Source: Hyphomicrobiaceae bacterium (GTDB taxonomy: Bacteria > Pseudomonadota > Alphaproteobacteria > Rhizobiales > Hyphomicrobiaceae). Taken from it: a stretch of DNA of 64,000 bases. This document shows positions 1,861 through 18,788 of this stretch, in pieces (position 1 is the first letter of the stretch; each line of letters begins with the position of its first letter). Position numbers and translations under genes: made by a program. The notes beneath the pieces are model-generated. The model was given only the letters and a program-made list of their open reading frames with translations, ran no database searches and was not told the origin of the DNA. The stretch is taken from NCBI GenBank assembly GCA_031367715.1, contig JANLQJ010000405.1, positions 19,669 through 83,668 on the forward strand, given 5' to 3'.

Positions 1861-3204
1861 TCATCCTATGATATAGCTGACCTTGAATTTGCCATTGACG
1901 CGGCCGGTCAGGCAGGCCGCGTAGAGAGTGAAGGCTCCGGCCCCGGGCACGGCGCGCAAGTGCAGCAGGTCCATCTCGTTCTCGTCCGCCGTCCGGCCGG
2001 TCGCTGCTTTGCCCGATTGCTGGGGCACGATCTTCGAAGCCGCCGTCACGCCGGCATCGGCGACACTGAACGACTTGCTGCGCACGGCCGAACTGCCGAA
2101 GTCGATTTCGATTTCGCTGATTGCTGTAGTGCCGGTGGGTCCCTGTGAGCCGGTGGCGCCAGTATTGCCAGTCGGCCCAGCCGCCCCAGTCGGGCCTGTG
2201 TCCCCGGTAAGACCGACTGGCCCCTGCGGGCCGGTGGCTCCGGTATTGCCGGTAGACCCGGCAGGGCCTTGCGGCCCGGTGAGACCGGTCGATCCGGTGA
2301 GACCGGTGGGTCCCTGCGATCCAGTCGGACCTGTATTACCGGTCGATCCGGCCGGACCGGTGGCGCCAGCCGGGCCGACCAGATTGGTGCCCGAGCCGGT
2401 CCAAGCGCCGGCAACTTTGGGACCGTAAATCTTGCTTGCAGCGGTATCGATGTAGAAGTCGCCGTTGATACCTGTCCCCGCGCCCGGCGCACCTGTACCG
2501 TTCCAGACCGCGTTGCCGTGGGCATCGACATATTGCTTGGTAGCGATACCGAGGGCAGCCGTGGGATCGCCGTAAACCACACCGAGGGCGCTGCCGCGAT
2601 TGAGTTTGATCGCTTCTTTCCAGGTGCTGCCATCAGGACTCACCTTGAGGTGAAAATCGTCGTCGCCGGCCAAGCCCATTTCGGCGCGGCCCGAATAACC
2701 GTCCTGATAGAGCAGGCTGGCAGTATCGCCGGCGGCGGCCTTGTTCAGCTTGAGCTGGTGCCCATTGCCGATATTGTCGAACAGGCTGGCAGAACTTTTG
2801 ACCGCGAGTTTGTTGGTAGCATCGGCCGTGGCGTTGACGCCAAGCAGCGCGATGTTCTGCAGCGTGCTGTTGGCTGGGGTCCAGGCCGTGCCAGTGTTGA
2901 TGACCAGAGCGCTCTCGGCCGTCACCCACACCAGCCAGCCCGCCCGCGGCAGGTAGAACGCCTACGCACCATCTTGCCACGCTGCGACCTTGCCGTCCTG
3001 GCCAACCCAGGCGCCGGTCGCACTGGCGGCCACGATGTAGCGATCGCCCTCGGCGGGTGTGCCGGGCGGCGTGGTCAGAACGCGGCTCAGCACTGCAGGT
3101 TGCACCAGCGCGTCGAGAATACGCAGCGCGTCATTGTGCGTGACGTGCTTTTGCGCCTGTGCCGCGTCAAGATAGGGCAGGTTGAGATTAGGCGTTCTCG
3201 TCAT
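1861..3204 (-). pseudogene. DUF2793-type tail fibre gene with collagen-like repeat, interrupted by an in-frame TAG at 2964-2962
   Basis: ORFs 2962..3204 (MTRTPNLNLPYLDAAQAQKHVTHNDALRILDALV..., a DUF2793-like N-terminus) and 1861..2931 share one frame (2964-2931=33). The read-through text is ...[27 protein letters not shown].... The M at 2931 in the track is a GTG. Confidence 0.7.
2131..2376 (-). repeat. Collagen-like Gly-X-Y array (about 27 triplets) inside the fibre gene
   Basis: Residues 186-267 of the 356-aa ORF: [82 protein letters not shown]. Preceded by [16 protein letters not shown], which is common in phage collagen-like fibres. Confidence 0.9.
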
Positions 3205-6200: not shown

Positions 6201-7149
6201 AGACCCGGGGCGTGGTAACCTTGCTGGCATTATCAATGCGCGGTTTCAGCTGACAGTTGCCGACTCTCAAATCATCGCCGAACCAGCTCACCACCAGCGA
6301 GACATTAGCGGCCGCGGGCAGACTTTCCTGCAACTGATCGAGCGACGCCGACCAGTCGGTCTTGCCGGTCAAGGTATGCATGTTCTCGGGGGTCGAAGCG
6401 CCACCCGGGGTAACCCGCTGCACCTCGGCGGTTTCATAGACGAACTCGCCGGCGCCCGGGATCATGGTGACGGCCGGCACCAACTGCTCAAAACCATCGA
6501 CGGCGCGAAACACCTCGAACGACAGTTGCGGCAGCCGGTTGCCGAATTTGGCCAGCGCCAAACGCTCGAACACGACATAGGCGATGCCGCGATAGGCCGG
6601 CGCCAGTCCCGCGCCTTCCTTGGCCTCGATCAGGCTGTCGGGCATCTGCAGCGTACTGCCGGCATGCAGTCGCCAGGTGATGCCATTGAGATCGAGTTCC
6701 TTGCCGTCCGCCCATACTTTGCCGACATGGGTGATTGGCCCCTCGCACAGCGCAACGGCGAAGTTGGCGAAATAGCTGAAGCTGGTGGAGGTCGGGCCGC
6801 CGCCGCCGAGACCCTTGCCACCGCCGCTATTGCCACCGCTCGAGCTGGCGACCTCCTCGAAATTGGTCGCCCAGATGACTTCGCCGGCGATCCGTGCACG
6901 GCCATAGAGCCGCGGGATCGGCGCTCCCTGGCGCGACGCCATGATCTTGAGCGAGGCCAGGCGCGGCCCTTCCAGCACGCGGCCCTGGCCGCTGGCCCCG
7001 AACAGCGCCTGATCGACATAGGAGCCGGCGAGCCCGCCGAGCGCCTGGCCGACCACCGCGCCGGTGATGGTGGCGCCAAGAATGGTGGCCGTCGGCAACA
7101 GCGCGCCGCCGATGGCAGCGCCGACTGCGGCAAGGGCAAGAGTGGCCAT
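3214..7149 (-). CDS. GTA g15-type host-specificity / baseplate multidomain protein
   Basis: 1311-aa ORF, last gene of the tail module. Hydrophobic Gly/Ala N-terminus MATLALAAVGAAIGGALLP. Size and position match RcGTA g15 (rcc01698)-like proteins (recall). Confidence 0.8.
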   Translation of the reverse strand: MATLALAAVGAAIGGALLPTATILGATITGAVVGQALGGLAGSYVDQALFGASGQGRVLEGPRLASLKIMASRQGAPIPRLYGRARIAGEVIWATNFEEVASSSGGNSGGGKGLGGGGPTSTSFSYFANFAVALCEGPITHVGKVWADGKELDLNGITWRLHAGSTLQMPDSLIEAKEGAGLAPAYRGIAYVVFERLALAKFGNRLPQLSFEVFRAVDGFEQLVPAVTMIPGAGEFVYETAEVQRVTPGGASTPENMHTLTGKTDWSASLDQLQESLPAAANVSLVVSWFGDDLRVGNCQLKPRIDNASKVTTPRVWSVAGVTRSSAIVVSSADGAPAYGGTPSDGSVIAAIRDLAARGLKCTFNPFILMDIAAGNGLPDPYGGAAQAAYPWRGRISVHPAAGRPGTVDKTATAATQLNAFVGSAAVAHFAIAGDTVTYSGPAEWSYRRMVLYYAHLCKAAGGVDGFVIGSELKGLTTARSGASSYPFVAALVQLAADVKTVLGAGTKVTYAADWSEYFGHQPADGSNDVYFHLDALWTCAAIDAVGIDVYWPLADWRDGTTHADLVAGASSTYDLAYLKGNIVAGEGYDWYYASAAARNAQVRTPITDGAGKPWVFRFKDIAAWWGNRHYHRPGGVESSTPTAWVPQSKPFWFTELGCPAVDKGANQPNTFVDVKSAESALPYFSGGGRDDLMQRRFLQAMLERFKQGAGTAANPISSLYGAPMVDPARMFVYTWDARPYPAFPQIADVWGDAGNWQRGHWITGRIAAVALDAVVSSILTENGFVSFDTSALVGLVDGYVVDRVMSARAAIQPLELAYFFDSYESGDKISFAQRGLRGPVAVLNTDNLVETAPGAEPFHLVRRQETELPAVARLGFLDADRGYQSSAAESRRLASSSTRISNAELPMVLRPAVGQAIAERLLQDAWAARQHAQFRLPESWLALEPSDIVTLQLPGRSLELRITSLADGLGRGIDALSIQRAVYNSSSAVERETTATAAAAFGRPLIAFLDLPLLRGDESPIAARVAATQTPWPGGIAVYRSADGIDFRLNAMLAAQATLGVTTVAFAAGAVNRWDRANQLTVQLTSGTLATQSDLAVLAGANAAAIETSPGIWEVLQFAKADLIADRTYRLTRLLRGQAGTEGAMATMLAAGATFAFLDTSVALLDETLDQIGLALAWRFGPANRPLGHLSYTTQTLRFSGIGRRPLSPSHIVGVRSDGDLAIGWKRRTRIGGDNWEQREVPLAEDNEAYEVDVLSGASVVRTLSSASPTVTYTSAQQTADFGTPPTSVAVKVFQISPSFGRGTPRAATI

Positions 7150-7191
7150 CGAAGCACCGTTTCCAGGCTGCTGGTTACAATCAGTACACGC

Positions 7192-7629
7192 TCAATCGGC
7201 GACGCCCGGCAGCGCGAAAGCACCGGCGATGCGGCGGCGCCACCAGGGGCCGAGATGCACCTCGCTGACCGGCACGCCCTCCTGGGCGTGGATCATGCGG
7301 CCGTCCTCAACCAGGATCGCGGCATGCTTGGCGACCGCGAAGGTGTTGACGCGGAAGATCAGGACATCGCCCGGCTGCATCGCCACGCTACTGATCTGGC
7401 GCAGATGCCGGCCGGCAGCCGACAGCAGCGCCTCGTTGCCGGTTGCTTCGGCCCAATCGCCAGTATACGGACCGGGCGACTCCGGCTCGTCGGCATAAAT
7501 CTCGCGCCATAAGCCGCGCACCAGCCCGATGCAATCGCAGCCGACTTGCCGCAGGCTGGCGCGGTGATGATAGGGCGTACCCAGCCAGCCGCGCGCAAGT
7601 CGCGTGATATCGGTCCGTGTCACGCTCAT
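7192..7629 (-). CDS. NlpC/P60-family phage cell-wall peptidase (GTA g14-like)
   Basis: GWLGTPYHHRASLRQVGCDCIGLVRGLWRE gives the catalytic Cys context, with a downstream His in HAAIL. 145 aa, in the g14 position. Confidence 0.85.
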   Translation of the reverse strand: MSVTRTDITRLARGWLGTPYHHRASLRQVGCDCIGLVRGLWREIYADEPESPGPYTGDWAEATGNEALLSAAGRHLRQISSVAMQPGDVLIFRVNTFAVAKHAAILVEDGRMIHAQEGVPVSEVHLGPWWRRRIAGAFALPGVAD

Positions 7630-8519
7630 GAGAACCTGCTGCCGCCGGTGTTGCTGCCCTCACCCGCCGCCGGATAGGACGTGATGAAATCGTTGCCCGG
7701 CATATGCGGGCAACCGCGAAAATTGAGCCCATTGGCGAATTTCGCGCGGCAGGTGGCAAATTGCTTGTCGCAACCGGCGCTGATCGAAAAACTGTCGCCA
7801 AGCGTGAGCGGACGGTTTGGGTCCAGCCAGATCTCGATGCGCACGCCAGCGGTACTGACGCTGTGCCGCTTCACCTCGGCCTTGCGCGCCGCATTGCCGC
7901 CATTGACCCAGGTCACCAGGCCGCGCGTGAACCAATCATCGGCATACGCGCCGAGACCGTTGACCAGGATGATGCGCTCATCGAGCAGCGCCGCAACCGT
8001 GCCCGTGCCAGTGAATGCCGCCCCCGCCAATGCCACGCCGCAGCGCGCATCGCCCAGATCGGCATCGCAGCCATACTGGTAGATGCGTCCGCGCTCCTGG
8101 CTGAGATAGTGCGCCAAACCACGCACCTCGGCGGCGAAGGCGGTGCTGCCGCGCTTGACCTCGCCAATGCTGCCCGTGCGCACCAGCAGCCGCTGCGCTG
8201 GTGCCGCCCAGTTGACACGGAAGATCTCGATGCCGGCATTGTCGTAGCGGCCGCTCGACAGATCATCGGCACTGAGACGATCCGAGCGCAATGCACCCGA
8301 CAGTTCCTGATTGCCCACCGCCAGACCAACCTCGGCATGCAACTCGCTGGCGGTAAAGCCACTCGACGCCTCGAACACGGTGCCATCGAACACGACGTCG
8401 CGATCGTGATCGGTGAACCCCAACCGCGAACCGTCATTGCGGGTGACGCGCCAGCACCAGGCCAGTGTTGTGGCGCCGCTGCTGAGATGGGCCTGCAAAG
8501 CCGCTGGAACAGATCTCAC
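7626..8519 (-). CDS. DUF2163 / BR0599-family tail hub protein (GTA g13-like)
   Basis: The track ORF 7626..8897 has an Arg/His-rich N-terminal extension that overlaps g12. I reassigned the start to GTG 8519, giving a GTGA overlap with the g12 stop. The product then begins VRSVPAALQAHLSSGATTLAWCWRVTRNDGSRLGFTDHD. Confidence 0.8.
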   Translation of the reverse strand: MRSVPAALQAHLSSGATTLAWCWRVTRNDGSRLGFTDHDRDVVFDGTVFEASSGFTASELHAEVGLAVGNQELSGALRSDRLSADDLSSGRYDNAGIEIFRVNWAAPAQRLLVRTGSIGEVKRGSTAFAAEVRGLAHYLSQERGRIYQYGCDADLGDARCGVALAGAAFTGTGTVAALLDERIILVNGLGAYADDWFTRGLVTWVNGGNAARKAEVKRHSVSTAGVRIEIWLDPNRPLTLGDSFSISAGCDKQFATCRAKFANGLNFRGCPHMPGNDFITSYPAAGEGSNTGGSRFS

Positions 8520-9154
8520 AGGCGCACCTCGAGGATTGGGATGTGCGGGATCGAACCGGCAGCAAAATTCTGCAGGTTGACCTCGATGCGGTCGGTATCG
8601 AAGCGCACCGGCACATCGAACTCGTAGCCGGCGGTGATGGCCGCGCTGGCCGCCGGGATGTGGCCGGCCAGGAAGCTGATCAGCCCGGTGGCGTAGTCGG
8701 TGGAAAAGACGCCGCCTTCCAGCTGCGCCACGCCCGCGACCTTCACCAGCAATGTTCCTTGCACCGGCTTCTTGATCGCCCGTCGATAGGGCGCAAACCC
8801 ACCACCATAGACTTTCGTCAGTTGAAAGACGGTGGTGGCGCCGTCGCCGGTGCCGATGGTCTGGTCGGTGGCAGCCGGCATCCGCGACGATGGGCAAGAG
8901 CGAAAATCAGCATGATCGCGCCAGCGGAAGCCGTGCAAACGGCCGCGCCGCTCCTCGAAGAAAGCGAGCACCGCATGCAGATCATCGACGCTGCGCACGC
9001 CGTAGCCTGCGTTGTAGCTGCGCCGCGAATCGGCCCAGCGGCTGTTGCGCTCCTCAAAGCCCGAGGCCAGCGTCACCACATCGGTGCGCCGCTCCGGACC
9101 ACCCACCGCGCCCTTGGAAAGATTGGTCGGAAAGCGCGTTTCATGAAAAGCCAA
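8516..9154 (-). CDS. DUF2460 distal tail protein (GTA g12-like)
   Basis: MAFHETRFPTNLSKGAVGGPERRTDVVTLASGFEERNSRW is the typical N-terminus of the TIGR02217/DUF2460 family (recall). Located in the g12 position. Confidence 0.85.
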   Translation of the reverse strand: MAFHETRFPTNLSKGAVGGPERRTDVVTLASGFEERNSRWADSRRSYNAGYGVRSVDDLHAVLAFFEERRGRLHGFRWRDHADFRSCPSSRMPAATDQTIGTGDGATTVFQLTKVYGGGFAPYRRAIKKPVQGTLLVKVAGVAQLEGGVFSTDYATGLISFLAGHIPAASAAITAGYEFDVPVRFDTDRIEVNLQNFAAGSIPHIPILEVRL

Positions 9155-9172
9155 GGGAAACCCTCCGTAGAC

Positions 9173-9754
9173 CTACAAATTGCGCTGTCCGGCCGACAAT
9201 CCACGCTGCAGCATGGCCGCGATCTGCGTCTGCGAGCGTTGGAAACCGGCTACATCGGGCGTACTGATATTGAAGGTGATGTTGGCCCCGCCGCCCCCGC
9301 CCGAGCGCACGCCGAGCTGCCCATCGGCGCCCCGCGTCAGCGGCAGGATGGCCTCGGCGCCCTGTTCGCCAGCGACCGCGGCGCGACCATCCGACAACGG
9401 AAAACTGATCGGCGAGGAGATCACGCCGCCGCGCGCGAACGGCACGGTGATGCCGGAGCCCGCCGCTCCGCCACTGAGCGAACCGGTAAGACCACCGAGG
9501 ATCTGATTGAACAGCCCACCGAGGGCATTTTCCAAAGGTTTGGTCGCGGCCGCCAGCGCCAGGTGCGCAAAGCTCCGCACCAGCGACTTGATGGTGTCCT
9601 CGAGCTTCTTGCCGCGCACCGCCACCTGCTCGAAGGAAGCGATCAGCCGGCTGGCGAACTGATCGCCCAGCGAACTCATATCGCTCAGTGATCGTTTCAA
9701 TTGCTCCCCGTTGGCGGCAATCTCAGCCGTCGCGGCCTGAATGGTGGTCGGCAT
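9173..9754 (-). CDS. Short tape measure protein (GTA g11-like)
   Basis: About 193 aa from MPTTIQAATAEIAANGEQLKRSL. Helical N-terminus and Gly-rich C-terminus, located between the chaperones and DUF2460. Start is either 9754 or 9772. Confidence 0.7.
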   Translation of the reverse strand: MPTTIQAATAEIAANGEQLKRSLSDMSSLGDQFASRLIASFEQVAVRGKKLEDTIKSLVRSFAHLALAAATKPLENALGGLFNQILGGLTGSLSGGAAGSGITVPFARGGVISSPISFPLSDGRAAVAGEQGAEAILPLTRGADGQLGVRSGGGGGANITFNISTPDVAGFQRSQTQIAAMLQRGLSAGQRNL

Positions 9755-10022
9755 CGTCCGTCGACTCCTCAATTATCTGGTCAGGAAACACCGCCATCAG
9801 CGCTTCCAACTCGGCGCGCGCCGGCGCGGCCCGCCGGCGGCGGCCGAAATGGCCTTCCAGGGCGGCATCGAACTCGCGCGGCGTCATGGCCCAGAACGTG
9901 GCAGGCTGCAGTTTCAGGGCGCCGAGCCCGATCGTCATGGCGAGCGGCCAGTCGAATGGCTCGGCCCCGGACGAGCCCGAAGATGCCCGGGGCCTCAGGC
10001 GTTTCCCGCTGTTGGCTCGCAC
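9723..10022 (-). CDS. Tail assembly chaperone extension (GTA g10.1-like), in the -1 frame of g10
   Basis: Contains EPFDWPLAMTIGLGALKLQPATFWAMTPREF, the rcc01693-like motif (recall). The ORF overlaps the g10 3' end and sits in the -1 frame (10339-10022=317). Confidence 0.7.
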   Translation of the reverse strand: MRANSGKRLRPRASSGSSGAEPFDWPLAMTIGLGALKLQPATFWAMTPREFDAALEGHFGRRRRAAPARAELEALMAVFPDQIIEESTDDADHHSGRDG

Positions 10023-10339
10023 CCCGATGGCGCCCCGCCAAAGGTCGCCGCCAGCAATCGTGCAACGATGTCGATCGCACCGGTCGCCCCGCCGTCGATA
10101 CGCATCTCGGCGACGGCAGCATCCTCGATCATGTGCCCGCCCGAGCGCAAACCGGCACCGAGAATGCGGATGGCATCGCGCGAAGAGATCCGCCCGCTGC
10201 CGAAACGCTGTGCCAGCGACAGCATGTCGTCAACCCCGAAGGCGTCTTCCAGTTCGGCCAGCGCACCGAGCGTCAGGCACAGCCGGCGTGGTACTCCGTC
10301 GATGACCGCCTCGATCTCGCCGCGATGACGATTGGCCAT
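9995..10339 (-). CDS. Tail assembly chaperone (GTA g10-like)
   Basis: 114 aa, MANRHRGEIEAVIDGVPRRLCLTLGALAELEDAFG..., immediately after the major tail gene. Confidence 0.75.
   Translation of the reverse strand: MANRHRGEIEAVIDGVPRRLCLTLGALAELEDAFGVDDMLSLAQRFGSGRISSRDAIRILGAGLRSGGHMIEDAAVAEMRIDGGATGAIDIVARLLAATFGGAPSGCEPTAGNA
10001..10007 (-). promoter_or_regulatory. Candidate -1 programmed frameshift heptamer G_GGA_AAC
   Basis: The minus strand reads gcG GGA AAC gcc TGA in the g10 frame. Slipping -1 gives GGG AAA CGC CTG AGG..., translating to GKRLRPRASSGSSGAEPFDW, which is exactly the g10.1 ORF text. Confidence 0.65.
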
Positions 10340-10351
10340 GACAATCCTCCG

Positions 10352-10762
10352 CTAGGTTGTGAAGATCAACTCGCCCGCCGATTCCAGCGTCATGTCGAAA
10401 GTCACTTCGGCATTGTACTGACCAGCAAAGTCGAGCGACGAGATCTGGAACGGTCCTTGTACGGTGCCGAGACCCGGAATGATCACCTGCCAGTTGCGGA
10501 TCGTCCCGGCAAAGAAGGTATCGCGAACGAGCGCATCTGTGGCCGAGTTCTTGAAGATGCCGTTGCCGGTGATGCGGGCATTGCGCACGCCAGCTCCCGC
10601 CAACAGTTCGCGCCATAGGCCGGTCGATTCCGCATTGGTGGTGTCGACCGTGGCGGCGTTGAAAGCGAGGGTGCGCGTGCGCAGACCCGCCACCGTGATG
10701 TAGGTGCCGCTACCGGTCTGGTCTATTTTAACCAGCAGATCGCGGCCTTTCTGGGCTGCCAT
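10352..10762 (-). CDS. Major tail protein, TP901-1-type (GTA g9-like)
   Basis: MAAQKGRDLLVKIDQTGSGTYITVAGLRTRTLAFN, 136 aa, in the g9 position. Confidence 0.85.
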   Translation of the reverse strand: MAAQKGRDLLVKIDQTGSGTYITVAGLRTRTLAFNAATVDTTNAESTGLWRELLAGAGVRNARITGNGIFKNSATDALVRDTFFAGTIRNWQVIIPGLGTVQGPFQISSLDFAGQYNAEVTFDMTLESAGELIFTT

Positions 10763-10793
10763 GAGGAAGGGCTCCTTGGATTAAGAGGCAACA

Positions 10794-10939
10794 GTCATCC
10801 CGGATGCGCCGCGGCGTTTTGACGGTGCGGCGCATCCGGGATCGCTCTGGGCTCAGGCGTGACGCAACTGGAGCACGTACCCGACCAGGTCGCGTGTCTG
10901 CAGTGCACCGTCAAAACGCTGCACTGCGCACGGGATGAC
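10794..10939. repeat. Nested palindromic REP/MITE-like element in the g9-g8 spacer
   Basis: Outer inverted repeat GTCATCCCG (10794-10802) / CGGGATGAC (10931-10939). Hairpin 1 pairs CCCGGATGCGCCGC (10799-10812) with GCGGCGCATCCGGG (10827-10840). Hairpin 2 pairs GCAGTGCA (10900-10907) with TGCACTGC (10920-10927). The two loops (GCGTTTTGACGGT and ACCGTCAAAACGC) are reverse complements of each other. Confidence 0.8.
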
Positions 10940-10956
10940 AGGTGGGTCGGCGATCA

Positions 10957-11367
10957 TCACGCCGGCTCGGTCACCGCGCGGTAGCGCACAATGCCGTGGA
11001 TGGTGACGCCGTCCGGATCGCGGCGGACGTCGGAGAATTGTTGACGCAGGCTGACCAGCACATGCCCGGTCAGTGTCAATGACGCTGTATGCAGAACATC
11101 CCGCAGCGCGGCGATGATGCGTTGCGCCTCACCGCGGCCGCCGCCCTGCGACCAGACATGCAGCGTCAAGATGTGCTCCTCGCCATCCTCCGTGCCCGTC
11201 CCCCAATCGCTCGATGCGGTCTGGCCGAGACCGACGTGCGGGTAGGGCGCCGCCTGTGGCACGTCGTCATAGATGCGCGCGCCGCCCAGCAGCGTCGTCA
11301 GCCAAGCACTGCCGATAAGCACGCCATACACGGCCTGTTGCAATTGCCAACTGGCGCTGCCGCTCAT
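10957..11367 (-). CDS. DUF3168 tail terminator-like protein (GTA g8-like)
   Basis: 136 aa, ...IYDDVPQAAPYPHVGLGQTASSDWGT...ILTLHVWS.... Position and motif fit DUF3168 (recall). Confidence 0.75.
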   Translation of the reverse strand: MSGSASWQLQQAVYGVLIGSAWLTTLLGGARIYDDVPQAAPYPHVGLGQTASSDWGTGTEDGEEHILTLHVWSQGGGRGEAQRIIAALRDVLHTASLTLTGHVLVSLRQQFSDVRRDPDGVTIHGIVRYRAVTEPA

Positions 11368-11693
11368 AAATTGCGCTCCTCGGCGAGAATCCGAAGGAAA
11401 GGCTCGGGGCCGTCGCGGTTCAGCACCGCCTCAATGACCAATAACCGGCTGCCAAACCGCAACCGCATGGCCGGCAGCACATCAGTGCGCCTACGGATGG
11501 TGACCTCGTGCATCACCCGGCCTTGCAGACCCTCGGCGATGAACTGTTGCGTCCCGGCAAGGCTTTTTAGCTCGGCCCACAGTTCGGCCACCGCGGACCA
11601 CGTCACCGTCACGCCGCCGCCACCATCGGCAACGCGCGCCGGTTGCTCCAGCGTCACACGACGGCGCAAGGCTGCAATCGCGGGTCTGCTCAT
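11364..11693 (-). CDS. Head-tail adaptor/stopper, SPP1 gp16-like (GTA g7-like)
   Basis: 109 aa, LRRRVTLEQP...VTVTWS...LWAELK. Start and stop overlap the neighbouring genes by 4 nt. Confidence 0.8.
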   Translation of the reverse strand: MSRPAIAALRRRVTLEQPARVADGGGGVTVTWSAVAELWAELKSLAGTQQFIAEGLQGRVMHEVTIRRRTDVLPAMRLRFGSRLLVIEAVLNRDGPEPFLRILAEERNL

Positions 11694-12271
11694 AGCCGCC
11701 TCACACGATAGGGATCGATCAGATCACACACCATCGGTGGCAGGCGGATCGAGCCACCGCCGCTGGCATCGGCAAGTTCGCGATGTTCGTACCAGTGCCC
11801 GACCAGCACCAGCAGCGCAACCCGCAAGGCGGCAGGAACGTCGGTCGGCAACGCGCCGTGCCCAGCCGTGAAATCAATGGCGATGCCGTTTCCAGGCCGC
11901 AACGGCTGCGGCCAGGCAATGGCGCCGCGGCGGATCAGGCGCGGCAGCGAGCCCATCCCGTCGAGCAGATAGCCGCTCGCCGGCAGGGTCGCGAAGCTGT
12001 CGTCCATGGCATAGACCCGCACCGCCTCCACCGATTGCACTGGTGCCAGCGGCAGCGCCACCGCATAGCCCGCCGGCCAGGCGTCAAGCCAATAGGTCCA
12101 GCCCTGCGTGATCAGGGCACGACCCAACCCCCGCTCGAGTTCGGAGCGCGCGCCAGTGATCAGACGGCTGATGAGTGCATCGTCGTCGGCGCTGTCCACG
12201 CGCAGATGCGCCTTGGCATCGGCGAGCGAGACCGGCTCCTGCGCGGGAGCGGAATTGGCTACGAGCGACAT
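11690..12271 (-). CDS. Head-tail connector, gp6-like (GTA g6-like)
   Basis: VSLADAKAHLRVDSADDDALISRLITGARSELERGLGRALITQ is the classic gp6-like connector N-terminus. Confidence 0.8.
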   Translation of the reverse strand: MSLVANSAPAQEPVSLADAKAHLRVDSADDDALISRLITGARSELERGLGRALITQGWTYWLDAWPAGYAVALPLAPVQSVEAVRVYAMDDSFATLPASGYLLDGMGSLPRLIRRGAIAWPQPLRPGNGIAIDFTAGHGALPTDVPAALRVALLVLVGHWYEHRELADASGGGSIRLPPMVCDLIDPYRVRRL

Positions 12272-12385
12272 GGGTAACTCGCTGAAAGAAGAGTGAGGGG
12301 TGAGGGGTGAGTGGCAAAGAGGTGACGTCGCGCTGGGTCTTTTAGCCGCTCACGACCCACAACTCACCACTCACGCCTGCTTGGT

Positions 12386-13639
12386 TCAGCTCACGCCGAA
12401 CTTCAGCAGCTTGATGGCGTCGAAGTCCTGCACGCCGCCACCGACTCGTTTGGTGGTGTAGAACAAGACATAGGGTTTGGCCGTGAACGGATCACGCAGG
12501 ATGCGCATGCCGACGCGGTCGACCACCAGATAGCCGGCCCGGAAATCGCCGAAGGCGAGCGAGAAACTGTCGGTGGCAAGCACCGGCATGTCCTCGCTCT
12601 CCAAGATCGGGAAGCCCATGAACTGGGGCGCCGCTCCCGGCTGGATCGCGGGCTGCCAGAGGTAGTTGTTGGTGCTGTCCTTCAGTTTACGGATGACCGC
12701 CTGGGTGGTCCGGTTCATGGCAAAACGCGCATTGGGCCGGTACTGAGCTTTCAGCGCATAGACCAGGTCGATCAGCTTGTCGCTGGGGGCGGTGGCGGGC
12801 AGCCCGCCGGCGACGCCGGTGGCCAGGTACCCCATCGAGCCCCAGGCCCAGGAGGCCTGCGCGAGCATCGGATAGGCCAGGAAACCCTTGGGTTTGCTGG
12901 TGCCGTCGCCGATGACGAAGGCGCTGCCTTCCTGTTGCGCAAAGGTGGTCTTCACTTCATCGGCCACCCACTGGTCGATGTTCACGACCGCATCGTCGAG
13001 TAGCGCGGTAGTCGCCGCCGGCATGGCGTAGATCTCGAAAGTGGGAAAGCTCAGATTAGCCAGCGCGGTGTTGCCGGTCTGCGGGCGCGCCGCCGCTTCA
13101 GCCGCCCAGCCAGCCGCGAAACCCGACGTCGAGAACGGCTTGTTGTAGACATTGCTGGAAACCTGCCGAACGGTCGCGGCGGCCCGGATCGGCGAGATGT
13201 CGCGGATGGCGAGCGATACGGCGTGCTCGGTCTCGGGCGGCACCAGATAGCCGCCATCCGAGCTGGAGCCGATCGACAACGCCTTGGTTTCCAGCGCCGA
13301 CAATGCTCCGGACTCGCCTTTTCGCACATAGCTCTCGAAGGCCGCCTTGTGCTGCAACTGCACGCTCGAACGCGGCAGGCCGCCGCCGATCGCCGGGCGG
13401 GACTGTTTGAGCAGCATGCTGTCGATCAACTGCTTGTGCTCGTCCAGCGACTGGTTGATGCGGTTGACCTTGTCCTCGCTGAGGACATCGGCCGAACCAC
13501 GCCGCTCGATCTGATCGATGCGCTGATCGTTCTCGGCCTTGAAGGCCTCGAAGCCGCGCATGAATTTGTCATAGACCACGGCAGCCTCGGGGCTCAGGGC
13601 CTTGGTTTCAGGAGCCGAATTGGGAGTCTCTGCGTTCAT
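12386..13639 (-). CDS. HK97-family major capsid protein (GTA g5-like)
   Basis: Start trimmed to ATG 13639, giving an ATGA overlap with the protease stop. N-terminal coiled delta-like region (FEAFKAENDQRIDQIERRG), then DGGYLVPPE. 417 aa. Confidence 0.9.
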   Translation of the reverse strand: MNAETPNSAPETKALSPEAAVVYDKFMRGFEAFKAENDQRIDQIERRGSADVLSEDKVNRINQSLDEHKQLIDSMLLKQSRPAIGGGLPRSSVQLQHKAAFESYVRKGESGALSALETKALSIGSSSDGGYLVPPETEHAVSLAIRDISPIRAAATVRQVSSNVYNKPFSTSGFAAGWAAEAAARPQTGNTALANLSFPTFEIYAMPAATTALLDDAVVNIDQWVADEVKTTFAQQEGSAFVIGDGTSKPKGFLAYPMLAQASWAWGSMGYLATGVAGGLPATAPSDKLIDLVYALKAQYRPNARFAMNRTTQAVIRKLKDSTNNYLWQPAIQPGAAPQFMGFPILESEDMPVLATDSFSLAFGDFRAGYLVVDRVGMRILRDPFTAKPYVLFYTTKRVGGGVQDFDAIKLLKFGVS

Positions 13640-14256
13640 CTCGTCCTCGTCTTTCTGTGGGGGGTGCGGGCTAGTTGGTTCAAGCGAAGGGCTGCCTCGC
13701 CGAGGCCCTCCCGGAAGGCGGCATCGTCGGTCGCGGCGCCCGATTTCACGGTCGAGATCAGCGCGCCAGGCTGCATCGGGAAAGTGACGACCGAAATCTC
13801 CCACAGGTCGATTTTCGTCAGCCTGCGGACACCGGAGCGCGCATCGCGCACACCCTTCTCGGTGCGAAAGCCGATCGAAAGCCCTTCCAACGCACCGGCC
13901 TGCATCAGCGACAGCGCCTCGCGAGCGCGCCTGACGTCGAGCAACAGACGCCCACGCACCTTCAGCCCACGGGCATCTTCGCTGAGCTGCTCCCAGATGC
14001 CGATCGGCTCGGCCGGATCGTGCTGGAACAGCATCCTGATGCCGCCGGTCCCGCGCCGGCTGAGCGTTTCGCGGAAGGCGCCGGGCACGACGATGTCGCG
14101 GGCGAGATCCTCAATGTTGAACAGGCTGGCATAGCCTTCGAAGGTGCCTTCGGCATCGACCGCAGTGAGATCGAGACGGGCGCGCTTGAACTCGTTCGGC
14201 ATGGCGGGAGCGGTCATGGGGTGGACCATGTTGGAGATACTCAGTTCGCGTTTCAT
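13636..14256 (-). CDS. HK97-family prohead protease (GTA g4-like)
   Basis: TFEGYASLFNIEDLARDIVVPGAFRETL...MLFQHD...GLSIGF...EISVVTFPMQP. An internal Met (14226 or 14214) could be the true start. Confidence 0.85.
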   Translation of the reverse strand: MKRELSISNMVHPMTAPAMPNEFKRARLDLTAVDAEGTFEGYASLFNIEDLARDIVVPGAFRETLSRRGTGGIRMLFQHDPAEPIGIWEQLSEDARGLKVRGRLLLDVRRAREALSLMQAGALEGLSIGFRTEKGVRDARSGVRRLTKIDLWEISVVTFPMQPGALISTVKSGAATDDAAFREGLGEAALRLNQLARTPHRKTRTR

Positions 14257-14291
14257 GTGTTGGGTCGTGGGTAGTCAGTGAACGCGGCGAC

Positions 14292-14750
14292 TCAGGCTCC
14301 GCCCGCGCCGGCCCCATACCCCGCGGCGGCGCGCTTTTCGTCGTTGGTCAGGAACCCCGCTGCATCGACGCGCGACCACAGCCCGTCCCGCTCGGCCGAC
14401 AGCGCCTCGATGGCGTCGAGATCGGCGCGCAATTCCAGGCCGCCGCCGTAGGCTGCGCCGAGCCAGTTCGACAACGCCTGCAGCGTGCGTGCGGTCAGCG
14501 GCAGCACGGTGTGGCGCCAGAAGGCACGATTGGCCTCTTGATAGTTGCCATGCGTATTGTCGCCGGGGATGCCGAGCAGCATGGGCGGCACGCCGGGCAC
14601 CAGCGCGATGTCGCGCGCTGCCTGGCGCTTGCTCTCGGTGACGTCCATGTCCTTGGGGCTGAGTGACCCATGCTTGGAGATTGGGCGCGCCAGTCGAGCC
14701 CGCCTTCCAGCAGCATCGGTCGGCCGGCGTTGCGGGCTTTAGTGTACAGT
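14292..14750 (-). pseudogene. Orphan, frameshifted copy of the portal gene 3' end (displaced native C-terminus)
   Basis: ORF 14292..14648 (MDVTESKRQAARDIALVPGVPPMLLGIPGDNTHGNYQEANRAFWRH...GYGAGAGGA-stop) parallels the C-terminus of the 437-aa portal. Further 5', ARNAGRPMLLEGGLDWRA continues in another frame, after an extra ~13 nt (around 14668-14682) absent from the full copy. Confidence 0.85.
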
Positions 14751-14754
14751 CCGG

Positions 14755-15057
14755 TCAAGGCTTGTAGCGGAGGCTGCCTGTTGTCTGATGCAGCATCCTG
14801 AGAAACGCAAGCAAGCCGTCCCCATCTGAGAAAGTTATGGTTGCGGGTGTCGTCCACCACCACAATCTCAACTCCTCTGGTGTATGCTTTCCGGTCAGCA
14901 GTTCATTTTCGAGGAACTCCCACACGACTCGCGTGTCTTCGGCGGTTAGCCCGACGAGCGCGAACTGCACCAGTTCGGTGGCCGAACCCGGTTCAAGTCC
15001 CTGGTGTAAATTTCGGCAAAGGCTATTGAATGCCTCTGGCTGCGCAATGCTTGTCAT
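14755..15057 (-). CDS. Putative CdiI-like immunity protein
   Basis: 100 aa. The ATG abuts the toxin stop (TAAATG). FNSLCRNLHQ...TAEDTRVVWEFLENELLTGKHTPEELRLWWW...DGDGLLAFLRML resembles CdiI-type immunity proteins paired with RNase-A-like CdiA-CT toxins (recall). Lies in AT-richer DNA. Confidence 0.55.
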   Translation of the reverse strand: MTSIAQPEAFNSLCRNLHQGLEPGSATELVQFALVGLTAEDTRVVWEFLENELLTGKHTPEELRLWWWTTPATITFSDGDGLLAFLRMLHQTTGSLRYKP

Positions 15058-15480
15058 TTAGTCCTCATTTAGCGGGAACGCGGAAACAACGAAGTATCCT
15101 TTCTTGGAGGTGGGGCTTCGCCGCAAGGACACCATCACACTATATGTATCCCGCATAACTGGTTGAGCTTGATCGTCAGCGACATACGCTTCGTAACCGG
15201 TGCGGCTTCGAAACTTCAGAAACAAATTCTGATACGGCAGCGCGTGCAACAATCCTCCGGCCACAAAGGCGGCCACTTTGTCTTGATTCGCCGCAATGGT
15301 TGCGTTGGTCAACTTGGCAGCCGCTTCCATCGACGGAAACGATCCCGCTCTCTTCTCACCAATTACGCCAATGAGAGGAATATTGACTCGATTTCCCAAT
15401 AGCCTCGCCTTGAGGTATTGAGGTGGCTTGGCGACGTGCCGTGCGATTGTATGCCCACCCAAACCCTCCTCCTCGACCAA
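15058..15480 (-). CDS. Putative RNase-A-like CdiA-CT-type toxin domain, in frame with the portal gene
   Basis: (TTG)VEEEGLGGHTIARHVAKPPQYLKARL...AGSFPSMEAAAKLTNATIAANQDKVAAFV...KGYFVVSAFPLNED. The N-terminal GGHTxxRHV and C-terminal hhSAFP fit my memory of Pfam RNAse_A_bac (PF18431). It shares the portal reading frame (16824-15480=1344), separated from it by one TAA plus 10 sense codons. Confidence 0.55.
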   Translation of the reverse strand: MVEEEGLGGHTIARHVAKPPQYLKARLLGNRVNIPLIGVIGEKRAGSFPSMEAAAKLTNATIAANQDKVAAFVAGGLLHALPYQNLFLKFRSRTGYEAYVADDQAQPVMRDTYSVMVSLRRSPTSKKGYFVVSAFPLNED

Positions 15481-15510
15481 GTCAATGGGATAACCTAGGT
15501 TGCCTTGGGA

Positions 15511-16824
15511 TTAAATGGATTGGAGGGTGCCCATGCCACCTGAACCGCTCGCGCCGCCATCCGTCCACTCCCCGCCACCGGGTTGCCCCTTGGGGAGCCT
15601 TGGTTGGCCGGGGTTGAAGAGCTTTACTCGAACACCACTACCAGCCCCATACCCCACCGCCGCGCGCTTCTCGTCGTCCGTCAGGAACCCCGCCGCGCCG
15701 ACCCTTGCCCACAGCCCGTCGCGCTCGGTCGACAGCGCTTCCACCCCATCCAAATCCACGCGCAGCTCCAGCCCGCCGCCATAAGCCGCGCCCAGCCAGG
15801 CCGACAGCGCCTGCAGGGTGCGTCCCGTCAGCGGCAGGATGGTGTGGCGCCAGAAGGCGCGGTTCGCCTCCTGATAGTTTGCATGCGTATTGTCGCCGGG
15901 GATGCCGAGCAGCATGGGCGGCACGCCGAGCGCCAGCGCGATGTCGCGCGCTGCCTGGCGCTTGCTCTCGGTGAAGTCCATGTCCTTGGGGCTGAGTGAC
16001 ATGGCGCGCCAGTCGAGCCCGCCTTCCAGCAGCATCGGCCGGCCGGCGTTCTTGGCGCCCTGGAAGGTGCTCTCCAGTTCCGATTTCAGTCGCGCATACT
16101 GTTCCGCCGTCAGCTGACGATCCGCCGCAGTATAGACCAGCGCGCCCGAGGGTAGAGCGCTATTGTCCAGCATCGCCTTGTTCCAGGCGCTGGCGGCGTT
16201 GTGGATGTCGATGGCGGTGGACGCGGCCTCGATCGGCGACAGGCCGTAATAGTCATTGGTTGGATGAAACAGCGCCTGGTGCAGAATCGGCCGCACACCG
16301 GGCACGGCATCGCCGCTGTAGCTGACCTTATGGCCGTTCACGGTGTAATCGTAGGAAGCCGGCCAGCCATCTGTTCCTGGAATAATCGAGATACGGTCCG
16401 GACGCAGCACATACAGTTCGCGCAAGGTCGAGCCGGTCGCGACGGCCTCCAGGTAGGCATTGCCTGAAACCAGCAGGTAACTGTACCACGCCTCCAGCAG
16501 TTCGGCGCGCGATTGGGTGGGATTGGGCACGCGCAACAGATCGAGCAATGGGTGATCTGTGATCTCTTGATCTCCGGCATAGAGACAGAACGCCACCGAG
16601 GCGGCGGCCTCGGCGATCATCCGCACGCTGCGGTAGACCACCGGGTTCTGCATGAAGCCTTCGCGCGCAAAGGCGCCGTAGTCGCGCGGGCTCCACACCG
16701 GCTGGCGCTGGTACTGCAGCGCGATCAGCGGCGCGGCGGCGCTGGTCTTGGCTTCGGGCGCGGCGATCGGGGCATAGCGGGAGAGGCCGGCGTAGCGCGC
16801 CAGCGCCGAGAGGATTGGGGACAT
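15511..16824 (-). CDS. HK97-family portal protein (GTA g3-like) with a ~40-aa C-terminal extension
   Basis: 437 aa with portal-typical NAGRPMLLEGGLDW and PPMLLGIPGDNTH. Past the native end seen in the orphan copy, it continues VRVKLFNPGQPRLPKGQPGGGEWTDGGASGSGGMGTLQSI. Confidence 0.9.
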   Translation of the reverse strand: MSPILSALARYAGLSRYAPIAAPEAKTSAAAPLIALQYQRQPVWSPRDYGAFAREGFMQNPVVYRSVRMIAEAAASVAFCLYAGDQEITDHPLLDLLRVPNPTQSRAELLEAWYSYLLVSGNAYLEAVATGSTLRELYVLRPDRISIIPGTDGWPASYDYTVNGHKVSYSGDAVPGVRPILHQALFHPTNDYYGLSPIEAASTAIDIHNAASAWNKAMLDNSALPSGALVYTAADRQLTAEQYARLKSELESTFQGAKNAGRPMLLEGGLDWRAMSLSPKDMDFTESKRQAARDIALALGVPPMLLGIPGDNTHANYQEANRAFWRHTILPLTGRTLQALSAWLGAAYGGGLELRVDLDGVEALSTERDGLWARVGAAGFLTDDEKRAAVGYGAGSGVRVKLFNPGQPRLPKGQPGGGEWTDGGASGSGGMGTLQSI

Positions 16825-16846
16825 GGGGTTGAACCTTTCGGTGTCG

Positions 16847-18286
16847 TCAGAGGGACCGGATCTTCGGCTCGCCAGATTTCGTCAGCATAAGATCGGTCAG
16901 GGCCCAGACCAGCGCATCCAGGCGATCAGGGCTGCGGCCGCCCGACAGGCCCGCCGGGCCGAAATCACACATCTGATCTTCCAGCGCTGCAAACGTTCCC
17001 ACATGGCTCACCATTCCTCGTTCGTACAATGCCGCCACCGGCTCGGCGCGGATCCATTTGCCGCGCGTCGCACGGACTTTCCGTATCGGGACATCCTGAT
17101 CGATCTGGCGGATCACGCCTTCCACCAGATCACCGCCCTGGTTCACCTCGGCGACGATGCGGTCGGCTTCGAACTCGGCCAGCGCCGACACCGCCGCCTT
17201 GGCCCACACCAGCGGCGCGTGGCCCGCGATGGTGCGGTCGGCCAGCACATAGCCACGCCCGCCGGCATCCACACCGGCCACCACGATGCCACAGGCGTCG
17301 GCCTTGGCACCGCTGGTCACTGGCGGATCGACCGCGACCACGATGCGTTTCAGGGCCGGCAACTCGGCGATCCGCACCCGCTCGATATCGGTCCGGCGCC
17401 ACAGCGCGTCGGCGCGATCCTCGACGATTTCGCCGTCCAGCTCCTGGCGGCCGAGCGTGCTCGCCCCGTAGCGGGCGCGCATCTGCTCGATGAAGCCGGG
17501 CGCAAGGTTGGCGAAGTTATCGAGCGTGCGCGAGCGGCTGACCGCCGTTGCCGCATCCGCCAGCAACCGCTTCAACAGCGCGATCGGGCGCGGCGTGGTG
17601 GTCACCACCTGGCGCGGACGTTGCCCGAGCCGCAGCGCGAACTGCAGCATGTCCCAGGTTTTGTCCGCATAGCGCCATTTGGCCAGCTCGTCGCACCAGG
17701 CAGCGCCAAACTGCGGCCCGCGCAGCCCGTCCGGTTCCTCGGCCGAGAACAGCTGCGCGATAGCGCCGTTGGACCAGGTTAGTTGCCGTTTCGATGCTTC
17801 GTATACGGGGCGTTCGTGCGGCGCATGTACCGCGAGCAATCCCGACACGCCCTCGACCATGACCGCGCGCACCTCCGCCATGGTCTCGCCGATCAGCGCG
17901 ATGCGCGCAATCGCGGTATTGGCCAGCGGTTCGAGCCCGAGCGCCTGCGCCCTGACCCATTCGGCGCCGGCGCGGGTTTTTCCCGAGCCGCGTCCGCCGA
18001 GCACCAGCCAGGTGCGCCAGGTGTCGGTCGCGCCAGAGTCCTGGTCGCCGCCCGGCGGCTCTGCGGCAGGGAACTGCTCGCCGGCAGCCGGTTCGGCTGC
18101 AAGAGCGCGTGCAATCTCCCTGGGGAGCTGATCGAGTCTTGCCCAGCTGATCCAGTCATGCCACAGGCGGGCTACCCGCGCCGCAGGCAGGCCGCCAATG
18201 AACTCCTCACTGGTGCCGTCGCGCACCGAGGCTTGCAATCCGATCCGCAAGTTCCTGGCGCCAGTCAGCGACATTGTCGTCTCCAT
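16847..18286 (-). CDS. Terminase large subunit (GTA g2-like)
   Basis: Walker A in WLVLGGRGSGKTRAGAEWV. 479 aa, directly upstream of the portal gene. Start (18286 or 18274) overlaps the g1 3' end by about 70-80 nt. Confidence 0.85.
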   Translation of the reverse strand: METTMSLTGARNLRIGLQASVRDGTSEEFIGGLPAARVARLWHDWISWARLDQLPREIARALAAEPAAGEQFPAAEPPGGDQDSGATDTWRTWLVLGGRGSGKTRAGAEWVRAQALGLEPLANTAIARIALIGETMAEVRAVMVEGVSGLLAVHAPHERPVYEASKRQLTWSNGAIAQLFSAEEPDGLRGPQFGAAWCDELAKWRYADKTWDMLQFALRLGQRPRQVVTTTPRPIALLKRLLADAATAVSRSRTLDNFANLAPGFIEQMRARYGASTLGRQELDGEIVEDRADALWRRTDIERVRIAELPALKRIVVAVDPPVTSGAKADACGIVVAGVDAGGRGYVLADRTIAGHAPLVWAKAAVSALAEFEADRIVAEVNQGGDLVEGVIRQIDQDVPIRKVRATRGKWIRAEPVAALYERGMVSHVGTFAALEDQMCDFGPAGLSGGRSPDRLDALVWALTDLMLTKSGEPKIRSL

Positions 18287-18683
18287 ACGGTGAAGTGGTG
18301 GTGCCGGCCGGGGTGTCGGTAGACCCGGGCATCACCTTCTCGCGCCAGGCCGCTTCTTTGGCGTCGAGCTTGTCGAACGTGGTCAGCAGCGAAGCGAAGG
18401 CGCGCGTGCTGCGTTCGTCGTCGGTGGGTTTGGCTTCGGGATCTTCCATGCGGGTCTCTAGTTGCTTGAGCTTGGCGACGATGATCCGGCGCAACACCGC
18501 CCGCTCCGAGACGGCCCCTTCGAGCCGCAGCGAAGCGTGTGGGGGCCAGTTGAATTTCTGGGCGCGCAGATAGAGCGTGTTGCGGTTGATCTCGCATTGG
18601 CTGGCGATCTCGGCGATGCTGAACTCGCCTTCGAAATACAGGCGTTCGGCCTTCGCCCAGGTCGATGGGCGGATGGTGCGCAT
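18207..18683 (-). CDS. Small terminase-like / HTH protein (GTA g1-like)
   Basis: Start trimmed to ATG 18683 (GGGAG upstream). MRTIRPSTWAKAERLYFEGEFSIAEIASQCEINRNTLYLRAQKFNW is HTH-like. First gene of the cluster. Confidence 0.65.
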   Translation of the reverse strand: MRTIRPSTWAKAERLYFEGEFSIAEIASQCEINRNTLYLRAQKFNWPPHASLRLEGAVSERAVLRRIIVAKLKQLETRMEDPEAKPTDDERSTRAFASLLTTFDKLDAKEAAWREKVMPGSTDTPAGTTTSPYGDDNVADWRQELADRIASLGARRHQ

Positions 18684-18788
18684 GGGGGTAGGCTCCCGAA
18701 GGATTTGGGAAAGGGGATAGGGAACGGGGAACAGGTAATGACCCCGCGGCTTCTGGCTCACTTTGGTGATGGGACAAAAAGACACCAT

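Follow-up and report, generated by a model that had tools for sequence, protein, structure and literature searches.

The 64,000-nucleotide stretch of Hyphomicrobiaceae DNA analyzed here (the window; contig JANLQJ010000405.1 of assembly GCA_031367715.1) contains a gene cluster of the type that encodes the Rhodobacter capsulatus gene transfer agent (GTA; RcGTA for this species), and the portal gene of this cluster is continued by a linker, a toxin domain and an adjacent immunity-type gene. We consider it probable that this cassette is a decaying or uncoupled member of a family of polymorphic toxins that are carried by portal proteins. Some related clusters encode portal, linker and toxin as one uninterrupted protein, and in the window an in-frame TAA separates linker from toxin; a recently uncoupled toxin beside a retained immunity gene is, in our view, the most economical reading of this arrangement. 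A portal-carried family of polymorphic toxins in GTA-type clusters is apparently undescribed.

The Cassette in the Portal Gene

The portal open reading frame (ORF) continues in translation past ...GYGAG with an extension of 42 residues (SGVRVKLFNPGQPRLPKGQPGGGEWTDGGASGSGGMGTLQSI) that include a junction peptide at 15618-15565 on the minus strand (FNPGQPRLPKGQPGGGEWT). The in-frame TAA then splits ...GMGTLQSI from SQGNLGYPIDLVEEEGLGGHT..., and beyond it the portal frame runs on as SQGNLGYPIDLVEEEGLGGHTIARHV... for 150 codons (table 1). Nine loci, which represent seven distinct assemblies or runs (NCBI, ENA and Logan), have this TAA with 30 nt of unchanged sequence on either side, and for this reason we take the stop to be genuine and not an assembly error. 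The same order of portal, toxin, immunity gene, orphan and protease is found on a 10.5-kb contig, JAYWEF010000172.1 (GCA_043779465.1), and a 109,589-bp contig is recorded as encoding identical toxin and immunity proteins. Among the 102 unique portal C-terminal ends at all loci examined, the lineage of the window is the sole case of linker, stop and toxin in succession. Gene callers have rendered this locus as a 90-aa fragment (the P0001 product; NCBI and ENA) and as 134-aa products.

By hidden Markov model (HMM) score and by its modeled fold, of the kidney-shaped alpha+beta type seen in RNase A, the continuation is a member of the RNAse_A_bac family (PF18431), and RNase activity is predicted for it. 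The match covers profile positions 1-113 of 113 at 50.4 bits (E 4.7e-13), where the curated cut-off is 27 bits. By sequence the continuation resembles 5e3e_B, the CdiA-CT toxin of Yersinia kristensenii (E 0.016, about 22% identity), and the same chain is the sole significant Foldseek match of an AlphaFold2 model made with four homologues (mean predicted local distance difference test score, pLDDT, 78.6), with E 6.1e-8, probability 1.00, a target template modeling (TM) score of 0.87 and a root mean square deviation of 2.7 A; the second-best match has E 0.1. The active-site residues of the Y. kristensenii toxin are His175, Arg186, Thr276 and Tyr278 (Batot et al. 2017, PMC5435912). Equivalents of His175 and Arg186 are kept in the window (GGHTIARH and GNRV), and the Thr276 and Tyr278 positions are occupied by Ser and Phe (VSAFP). 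Phe is often found at the Tyr278 position in this family (Batot et al. 2017, PMC5435912), and Ser at the Thr276 position, a conservative change, is also present in the intact fusions P0007, P0008, P0009 and P0012.

The 100-aa ORF that abuts the toxin is a putative immunity-type gene, as judged by its position and by the behavior of its family. Homologues lie directly 3' of related toxins at L101 (53% identity), L004, L018, L133, L138, L166 and other loci, and in more than 20 loci the toxin subtype goes along with one or the other of two conserved immunity families. The window protein has no match in Pfam (at E up to 1), NCBIfam or PHROG; its link to PF18593 (CdiI_2) is indirect and at the level of the family, as three of the 13 aligned family members match that model (best E 3.5e-7) and the window protein does not. 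Its structural model, from a two-sequence alignment, is all-alpha with five helices and a pLDDT of only 65. A Foldseek search of PDB with this model gave nothing below E 1.9, and neither its top, non-significant match, a TetR regulator, nor the weak TetR likeness of a published CdiI (Batot et al. 2017, PMC5435912) is counted as evidence here. A profile of the immunity family searched against PDB sequences did not find the CdiI chain of 5E3E and returned just spurious EF-hand and myosin light chain matches. Since the window protein misses PF18593 and the structure search is uninformative, the label CdiI-type is weakened.

An immunity-type family unrelated to this one, with proteins of about 80 aa (M..MDIYT.ATGV.MTI.W..EEEYQ.G.KFL), follows another subgroup of RNase A-like toxins (L003, L020, L041, L107, L076, L093, L049 and L028), and at L076 the unit is duplicated in tandem within one 167-aa ORF. 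Two unrelated loci (L018, 12312-12683, and L003, 7810-8181) have a DUF2019 (PF09450) gene close to their toxin-immunity pair, and this gene may be an orphan immunity gene.

The native 3' end of the portal gene is still present downstream as an orphan copy that terminates in ...GYGAGAGGA. Positions 14731-14308 of the orphan align to 16050-15641 of the portal gene with 87.6% nucleotide identity; the frame is broken by a 14-nt insertion near 14684-14668, and a 118-aa ORF within the orphan (14648-14292) matches PF04860 positions 214-320. The first 163 aligned nt of the two copies are 97.5% identical, the remaining 244 nt 80.7%, and the change, near 15885/14552, is likely a recombination or gene-conversion boundary within the duplicated segment. 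The G+C content is 53.7% in the cassette, 66.4% in the portal core and 69.6% in the orphan. Together, the low G+C content of the cassette and the step in identity indicate that a foreign portal 3' end with its linker, toxin and immunity gene was recombined into the resident portal gene and that the native portal end was thereby moved downstream, where it remains as the frameshifted orphan. A circular piece integrated by a single crossover could have produced this arrangement, as could later gene conversion. Identity to relatives does not discriminate which copy is native, being 80-83% for both.

An earlier, sequence-only reading of the window had described much of this layout. The in-frame Gly/Pro-rich extension after ...GYGAG, the displaced orphan and the GTA-like character of the cluster are all borne out, PF18431, the family proposed for the toxin, is upheld by both HMM and Foldseek, and the G+C contents counted by hand (62/120 for 15061-15180 and 45/60 for 15661-15720) are exact. 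The proposed CdiI-type immunity protein does start at the toxin stop (TAAATG), but the designation is supported at the level of its family and not for the protein itself. Likewise, the idea that the toxin is grafted onto the portal C-terminus applies to the ancestor and to relatives, but not to the present product of the window, where the in-frame TAA had been overlooked.

Uninterrupted Portal–Toxin Fusions in Related Clusters

An exhaustive, profile-free search returned 428 relatives of the toxin, where word-indexed searches gave five for the toxin and two for the immunity protein. Among the best 150 representatives of the toxin, about 28 have portal C-terminal sequence ahead of it. P0007 is a complete 631-aa portal-linker-PF18431 protein encoded in an RcGTA-type cluster on a 119-kb contig (L018), where an immunity homologue, the protease and the capsid gene follow it. 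A Hyphomicrobiaceae metagenome-assembled genome (MAG; L101) encodes an uninterrupted 607-aa portal-linker-toxin protein whose portal is 87% and whose toxin is 85% identical to those of the window, and this fusion is followed by a homologue of the immunity gene, by a truncated orphan piece of the portal and by the protease. A further uninterrupted fusion is found at L133. The toxin is thus fused to its carrier in P0007, L101, L133 and others, whereas in the window the TAA divides the two. Because these relatives are uninterrupted, we regard the fusion as the ancestral and usual state and the TAA of the window as derived.

The linker and RNase toxin also occur after the C-terminus of the S78 prohead protease (P0009 and P0132) and behind the N-terminal ATPase domain of the large terminase (P0062); head genes besides the portal can therefore act as carriers. 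In other clusters (L061, L064, P0002 and P0004), stand-alone toxins composed of a short helical N-terminal segment (...LR.WL..RLQ.LLRK) and the same linker directly follow intact portals and occupy the position of RcGTA g3.5. An in-frame stop as a programmed, general device was considered and rejected: the other in-frame stops (TGA at L061, TAG at L064) are located at the native portal end, before separate toxin genes.

Short ORFs composed of a portal C-terminal end and the linker, ending a few residues past GGQWT, make up another group (P0156-P0171, L117 and L178), several of them on megabase-scale contigs, and cassettes of this kind seem to be truncated repeatedly right behind the linker. 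A search with a profile of the portal C-terminus and linker gave 432 matches, of which the 120 listed are all short ORFs; of those examined, several stop shortly behind the linker and two have other C-terminal sequence. Truncated or orphan forms are thus frequent.

A Shared Junction Peptide and Diverse C-terminal Domains

In 86 of 155 toxin relatives the junction peptide conforms to [YF]xPxQPR(VPAGxxxGG or Dxx G)[QR]WT with a Gly-rich stretch behind it; NPxHDxxGRFT is found among its variants. The motif alone, scanned against IMG/VR, gave 89 loci on viral contigs. Nineteen of the 88 motif-bearing ORFs match PF04860 and two match MuF, and the C-terminal domains of this set include RNAse_A_bac (six), ADPrib_exo_Tox (four), barnase-type Ribonuclease (two), Zeta_toxin, ART and Peptidase_M91. 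One viral contig (L031) encodes a portal-linker-MuF fusion. Portal, MuF, the C-terminus of the prohead protease and capsid-family proteins are carriers of this linker, and carriers belong for the most part to the capsid interior; the terminase N-terminal domain of P0062 is the exception. The peptide, which is covered by no Pfam model, precedes many unrelated toxins and follows several head-protein carriers; a cleavage site, a recombination hotspot and a packaging signal are candidate roles.

The C-termini carried by portals are of at least eight unrelated sequence types. Behind one linker we find RNAse_A_bac, CdiA_C, PD-(D/E)xK-like, ADP-ribosyltransferase-like and MuF domains and at least four unknown types; one Methylocystis portal ends in CdiA_C (PF18451, E 2e-21), and further portals give weak CdiA_C_tRNase and PD-(D/E)xK signals. 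In a sample of 80 loci with related portals from species-representative genomes, the linker, in the form [YF]xPxQPRVPAGxxxGGQWT, stands behind the portal in 20, and extra portal C-terminal fragments lie between portal and protease in 24. Across the related genomes sampled, roughly one quarter to one third have intact fusions of the portal with toxins, which are of many kinds. Arrays of orphans are present at L098, L133, L114 and L144, and L098 has three orphan ORFs of portal C-terminus, linker and toxin. Interchangeable C-terminal domains, an adjacent downstream immunity ORF and orphan carrier fragments, by which polymorphic toxins are recognized, are thus all found in this family. Cultured strains with affected portals include Methylocystis rosea SV97, Methylocystis sp. 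H62, B8, L43 and JAN1, M. silviterrae FS, Alsobacter metallidurans and Devosia sp. Naph2. A search for the linker and toxin in 50,697 isolated phage genomes gave no match.

Six Methylocystis portals (L148, L150, L153, L154, L157 and L177) have a Cys-rich extension of 73-82 aa (...CAEEWALARERCENLL...GGYNDVENCARGFVSAACGGNAV) and no QPR linker. Orphan portal fragments lie downstream at these loci, and the extension of L148, the one member scanned, has no Pfam match.

Comparison with Known Systems

The system resembles the toxins on MuF proteins of phages (Zhang et al. 2012, PMC3482391; Jamet et al. 2017, PMC5576092), in which a head-interior protein of the portal-terminase module bears a variable C-terminal toxin, for which packaging into the capsid and delivery along with the DNA are predicted. 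The [YF]xPxQPR...GxWT linker is found on MuF proteins as well, as noted above. Nevertheless, Pfam scans of the cluster detected no MuF gene and PF04860 is the only carrier domain, and the system of the window is therefore not a MuF toxin. The carrier here is the portal, which is present in 12 copies per particle, and its host is an RcGTA-type cluster of Alphaproteobacteria, unlike the temperate phages of Firmicutes that encode MuF toxins; orphan carrier fragments and adjacent immunity genes are also prominent here. A closer precedent is provided by the polyvalent proteins of phages, as Iyer et al. (2017, PMC5512222) noted enzymatic effectors, RNases among them, that are fused to portals and were interpreted as injected. 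These effectors differ in having neither cognate immunity, orphan arrays nor C-terminal polymorphism at one locus, no GTA context was given for them, and their domains (PBECR, 2H and InPase) are not CdiA-CT families.

The CdiA-CT/CdiI pair of Y. kristensenii (5E3E) resembles the pair in the window in toxin family and fold, in the His175 and Arg186 positions and in the downstream immunity gene. It differs in the residue at Thr276 and in toxin sequence, with about 22% identity, and the published CdiI has eight helices, compared with about five predicted for the 100-aa protein of the window. Published carriers of this toxin family are CdiA (type V secretion system), Rhs (type VI secretion system) and ESAT-6-type proteins (type VII secretion system, T7SS) (Batot et al. 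2017, PMC5435912), whereas the carrier here is a portal. As at contact-dependent inhibition (CDI) and Rhs loci with orphan modules, a cassette together with a stretch of its carrier recombines in and the displaced old 3' end stays downstream. However, the displaced piece in the window is a native portal end that bears no toxin, not an older toxin, and the junction is the QPR...GxWT linker in place of VENN or PxxxxDPxGL. Finally, the cluster shares with RcGTA (Bardy et al. 2020, PMC7296036) the order and domains of the large terminase (TerL), portal, S78 protease, capsid, DUF2460, BR0599, NlpC/P60 and GTA_TIM/Rcc01698_C proteins. In RcGTA the small g3.5 alone lies between portal and protease, unlike the 1.25 kb with toxin, immunity gene and orphan in the window.

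These comparisons and the surveys bear on what the sequence-only reading had said beyond the window. The polymorphic-toxin layout that it described recurs, with unrelated C-terminal domains behind the same linker and common orphan arrays, and the search that it proposed for uninterrupted portal-toxin fusions or alternative toxins at the same site was successful (P0007/L018, L101, L133 and others). It named MuF toxins as the precedent; the portal-effector fusions of phages are a nearer one. Its statement that no portal-borne toxin in a GTA cluster is known to have been described agrees with the literature searched, in which we found no account of portal-carried, immunity-linked, orphan-bearing toxins in GTA-type clusters; coverage of that literature is incomplete, and this is absence of evidence only.

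Alternative Explanations

Because the ORF downstream of the TAA is intact and a Shine–Dalgarno-like run precedes a TTG, we considered whether the toxin is still made and used in the window, either through low-level readthrough of the TAA, in a few of the 12 portal subunits, or from a TTG at 15462 or 15480, as a free toxin of 134-140 aa that would be loaded, or would act, by some other route. We judge this to be unlikely. The toxin does lie in the portal frame with no further stop or frameshift over its 150 codons, the catalytic His and Arg are retained, the start picked by gene callers for the 134-aa products is the TTG at 15462, 5 nt behind GAGGAGGAGGG, and stand-alone linker toxins directly after portals exist in the clusters described above (L061, L064, P0002 and P0004). 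In Escherichia coli, however, UAA is the least leaky stop and a following U makes for a strong termination context, which disfavors readthrough. The GAG GAG GAG run encodes an EEE that is conserved in all homologues and is for that reason no evidence for a start site. Moreover, a product initiated at a TTG would have neither linker nor carrier, and a stop at this position is found in no other lineage, which argues against a programmed device. We find it still less probable that the portal-borne domains are establishment or anti-defense effectors, similar to the virion-packaged polyvalent proteins of phages, and are injected to disable the RNA or the defenses of the recipient so that transferred DNA survives. 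Such a role would agree with the PBECR, 2H and InPase domains fused to MuF or portal proteins, which were read as injected effectors (Iyer et al. 2017, PMC5512222), and with the portal-linker-MuF fusion of L031. Against it stand the dedicated immunity genes directly downstream, domains that belong to CdiA-CT families with known members among CDI, Rhs and T7SS toxins, and the arrays of orphan cassettes, all of which are hallmarks of polymorphic toxins (Zhang et al. 2012, PMC3482391); the lack of a match in isolated phage genomes also speaks against it.

There is very little chance, in our estimation, that the pair is an intracellular addiction or abortive-infection module of the toxin-antitoxin kind that landed beside the portal gene and is unrelated to particle loading, even though both ORFs are separate from the portal in the window, are of foreign G+C content and are tightly coupled through the TAAATG junction. 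A random landing fails to explain why a portal 3' end and a linker came in as part of the cassette and a displaced orphan stayed behind, why the toxin is covalently linked to the portal in relatives, and why the same site and linker recur with unrelated toxins. That the stop or the whole arrangement is an artefact of metagenome assembly or sequencing is hardly credible. The source is a metagenomic contig, a duplicated portal segment could mislead assemblers and many related contigs break nearby; yet the seven assemblies with the same TAA and flanks come from different runs and pipelines, which effectively refutes an assembly artefact for the stop, and the gene order is repeated on JAYWEF010000172.1 and, with an intact fusion, at L101.

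A Model for Portal-borne Toxins and Its Difficulties

We therefore return to an uncoupled member of a portal-carried toxin family and posit how intact members might work. We take the C-terminus (crown) of the portal to be directed toward the capsid interior, so that a fusion would place up to 12 flexibly tethered toxin copies in each particle. The carriers of the linker are mostly capsid-interior proteins, which points to a head-packaging logic like that of MuF toxins (PMC3482391, PMC5576092), although the terminase N-terminal domain of P0062 does not fit this logic. We speculate that the toxin might be freed at the conserved linker, possibly by the adjacent S78 prohead protease, and that it might exit with the DNA into recipient cells, where kin with the matching immunity gene would survive and others would be poisoned. 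In the window, the fixed TAA uncouples linker from toxin so that the toxin would not be loadable via the portal; the portal would end in a 42-aa tail, and the toxin would not be made at all, or at best in small amounts from an internal TTG. Presumably, the immunity gene has been kept for its protection against the particles of relatives.

A number of observations weigh against this interpretation. Past the TAA the toxin may not be dead, given an ORF intact over 150 codons, the retained His and Arg and the Shine–Dalgarno-like GAGGAGGAGGG 5 nt ahead of TTG 15462, which is a candidate start, as is TTG 15480. The Thr276 position, Ser in the window toxin, shows no variation in the alignment that was published (Batot et al. 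2017, PMC5435912), and the immunity protein of the window itself reaches no Pfam model. Packaging, cleavage and delivery of portal-toxin fusions are predictions made from the nature of the carriers. RcGTA ejects its DNA into the periplasm, and import needs competence proteins of the recipient (PMC7296036); an RNase that acts in the cytoplasm would thus need its own route across the inner membrane, and the spacing of 20-50 residues between linker and RNase domain looks too short for an entry domain of the CDI type. The GTA cluster is known here from its genes, and GTA particles of Hyphomicrobiaceae are putative.

Organization of the Cluster

The cluster lies on the minus strand at about 3214-18788, as delimited by Pfam matches (table 1), and consists of collinear head and tail genes that include the hallmark g12-g15 domains of RcGTA. 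A Terminase_5-like ORF sits 5' of the large terminase gene, the major capsid gene comes after the S78 protease gene, and a 1311-aa GTA_TIM/Rcc01698_C protein is encoded in the far downstream part. Obvious genes for replication, integration or lysogeny were not seen in the cluster, the small ORFs of which were only partly scanned. Among species-representative genomes the nearest portals belong to Hyphomicrobiaceae MAGs (85-88% aa identity). The distance from the portal stop to the protease gene is 1254 nt in the window. In relatives with plain portals, defined by an extension of at most 20 residues and no orphan fragment, this gap is mostly 17 to about 590 nt; gaps of 1.3-2.5 kb occur at the plain-portal loci L099, L104, L128, L132, L137, L140, L142 and L163. 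Just past the g15-like gene, a 356-aa ORF with collagen triple-helix repeats (1861-2931, minus strand; PF01391, E 4.5e-14) may encode a fiber or spike protein of the cluster.

Table 1. Features of the RcGTA-type cluster and its portal cassette, in window coordinates
Feature	Position	Strand	Basis or remark
RcGTA-type cluster	3214..18788	-	Pfam: Terminase_5-like, TerL, portal, protease, capsid, connector, tail tube, DUF2460, BR0599, NlpC/P60, GTA_TIM/Rcc01698_C
Large terminase (TerL)	18286-16847	-	
Portal ORF, 437 aa	16824-15511	-	PF04860
Portal core, codons 1-394/395, HK97/RcGTA g3 type	15641..16824	-	PF04860 residues 61-390, E 4.6e-89; TIGR01537 portal_HK97, 240 bits
Gly/Pro-rich linker, 42 codons, in frame with portal	15514..15640	-	Translation; holds the junction motif
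In-frame TAA, ends the portal ORF between linker and toxin	15511..15513	-	
Toxin ORF, predicted RNase A-like CdiA-CT type; in-frame continuation of 150 codons plus TAA 15060-15058	15058..15510	-	Same frame as portal; RNase domain ~15456-15073
Putative immunity-type ORF, 100 aa	14755..15057	-	ATG abuts toxin stop (TAAATG); homologues beside related toxins
Orphan copy of native portal 3' end, codons ~258-395 plus native stop	14292..14745	-	Alignment to portal; PF04860
Prohead serine protease S78, next GTA head gene	13636..14256	-	PF04586, E 4.8e-36
751-aa ORF, follows the cluster	19670-21925		Looks like a class A penicillin-binding protein on visual inspection

Implications

Genes of this kind are currently split in annotations or labeled "hypothetical". 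For the study of polymorphic toxins, the family described here contributes the portal as a carrier, together with a junction motif that is widely shared, and it widens the range in which RNase A-like and CdiA_C toxins are known so that GTA-type head genes are included. The copy in the window is a natural uncoupled variant that may serve as a control and as an example of cassette decay with a persisting immunity gene, and cultured strains with intact fusions, such as Methylocystis rosea SV97, other Methylocystis isolates and Devosia sp. Naph2, allow direct tests.

More broadly, we raise as a possibility, although on balance a somewhat doubtful one, that the RcGTA-type particles of many Hyphomicrobiales (Methylocystis, Hyphomicrobiaceae, Beijerinckiaceae, Xanthobacteraceae, Devosia and others) also deliver kin-discriminating toxins, with interchangeable portal-borne C-termini joined through the QPR...GxWT linker and adjacent immunity genes deciding survival. 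If this is true, polymorphic toxins would have a further trafficking route, and the retention of GTAs, whose upkeep despite lysis of the producer is a long-standing puzzle, would gain a selective rationale: with toxin and immunity built into the portal, the particles would be tools for the exclusion of non-kin, like CDI systems or tailocins, besides their role in DNA exchange.

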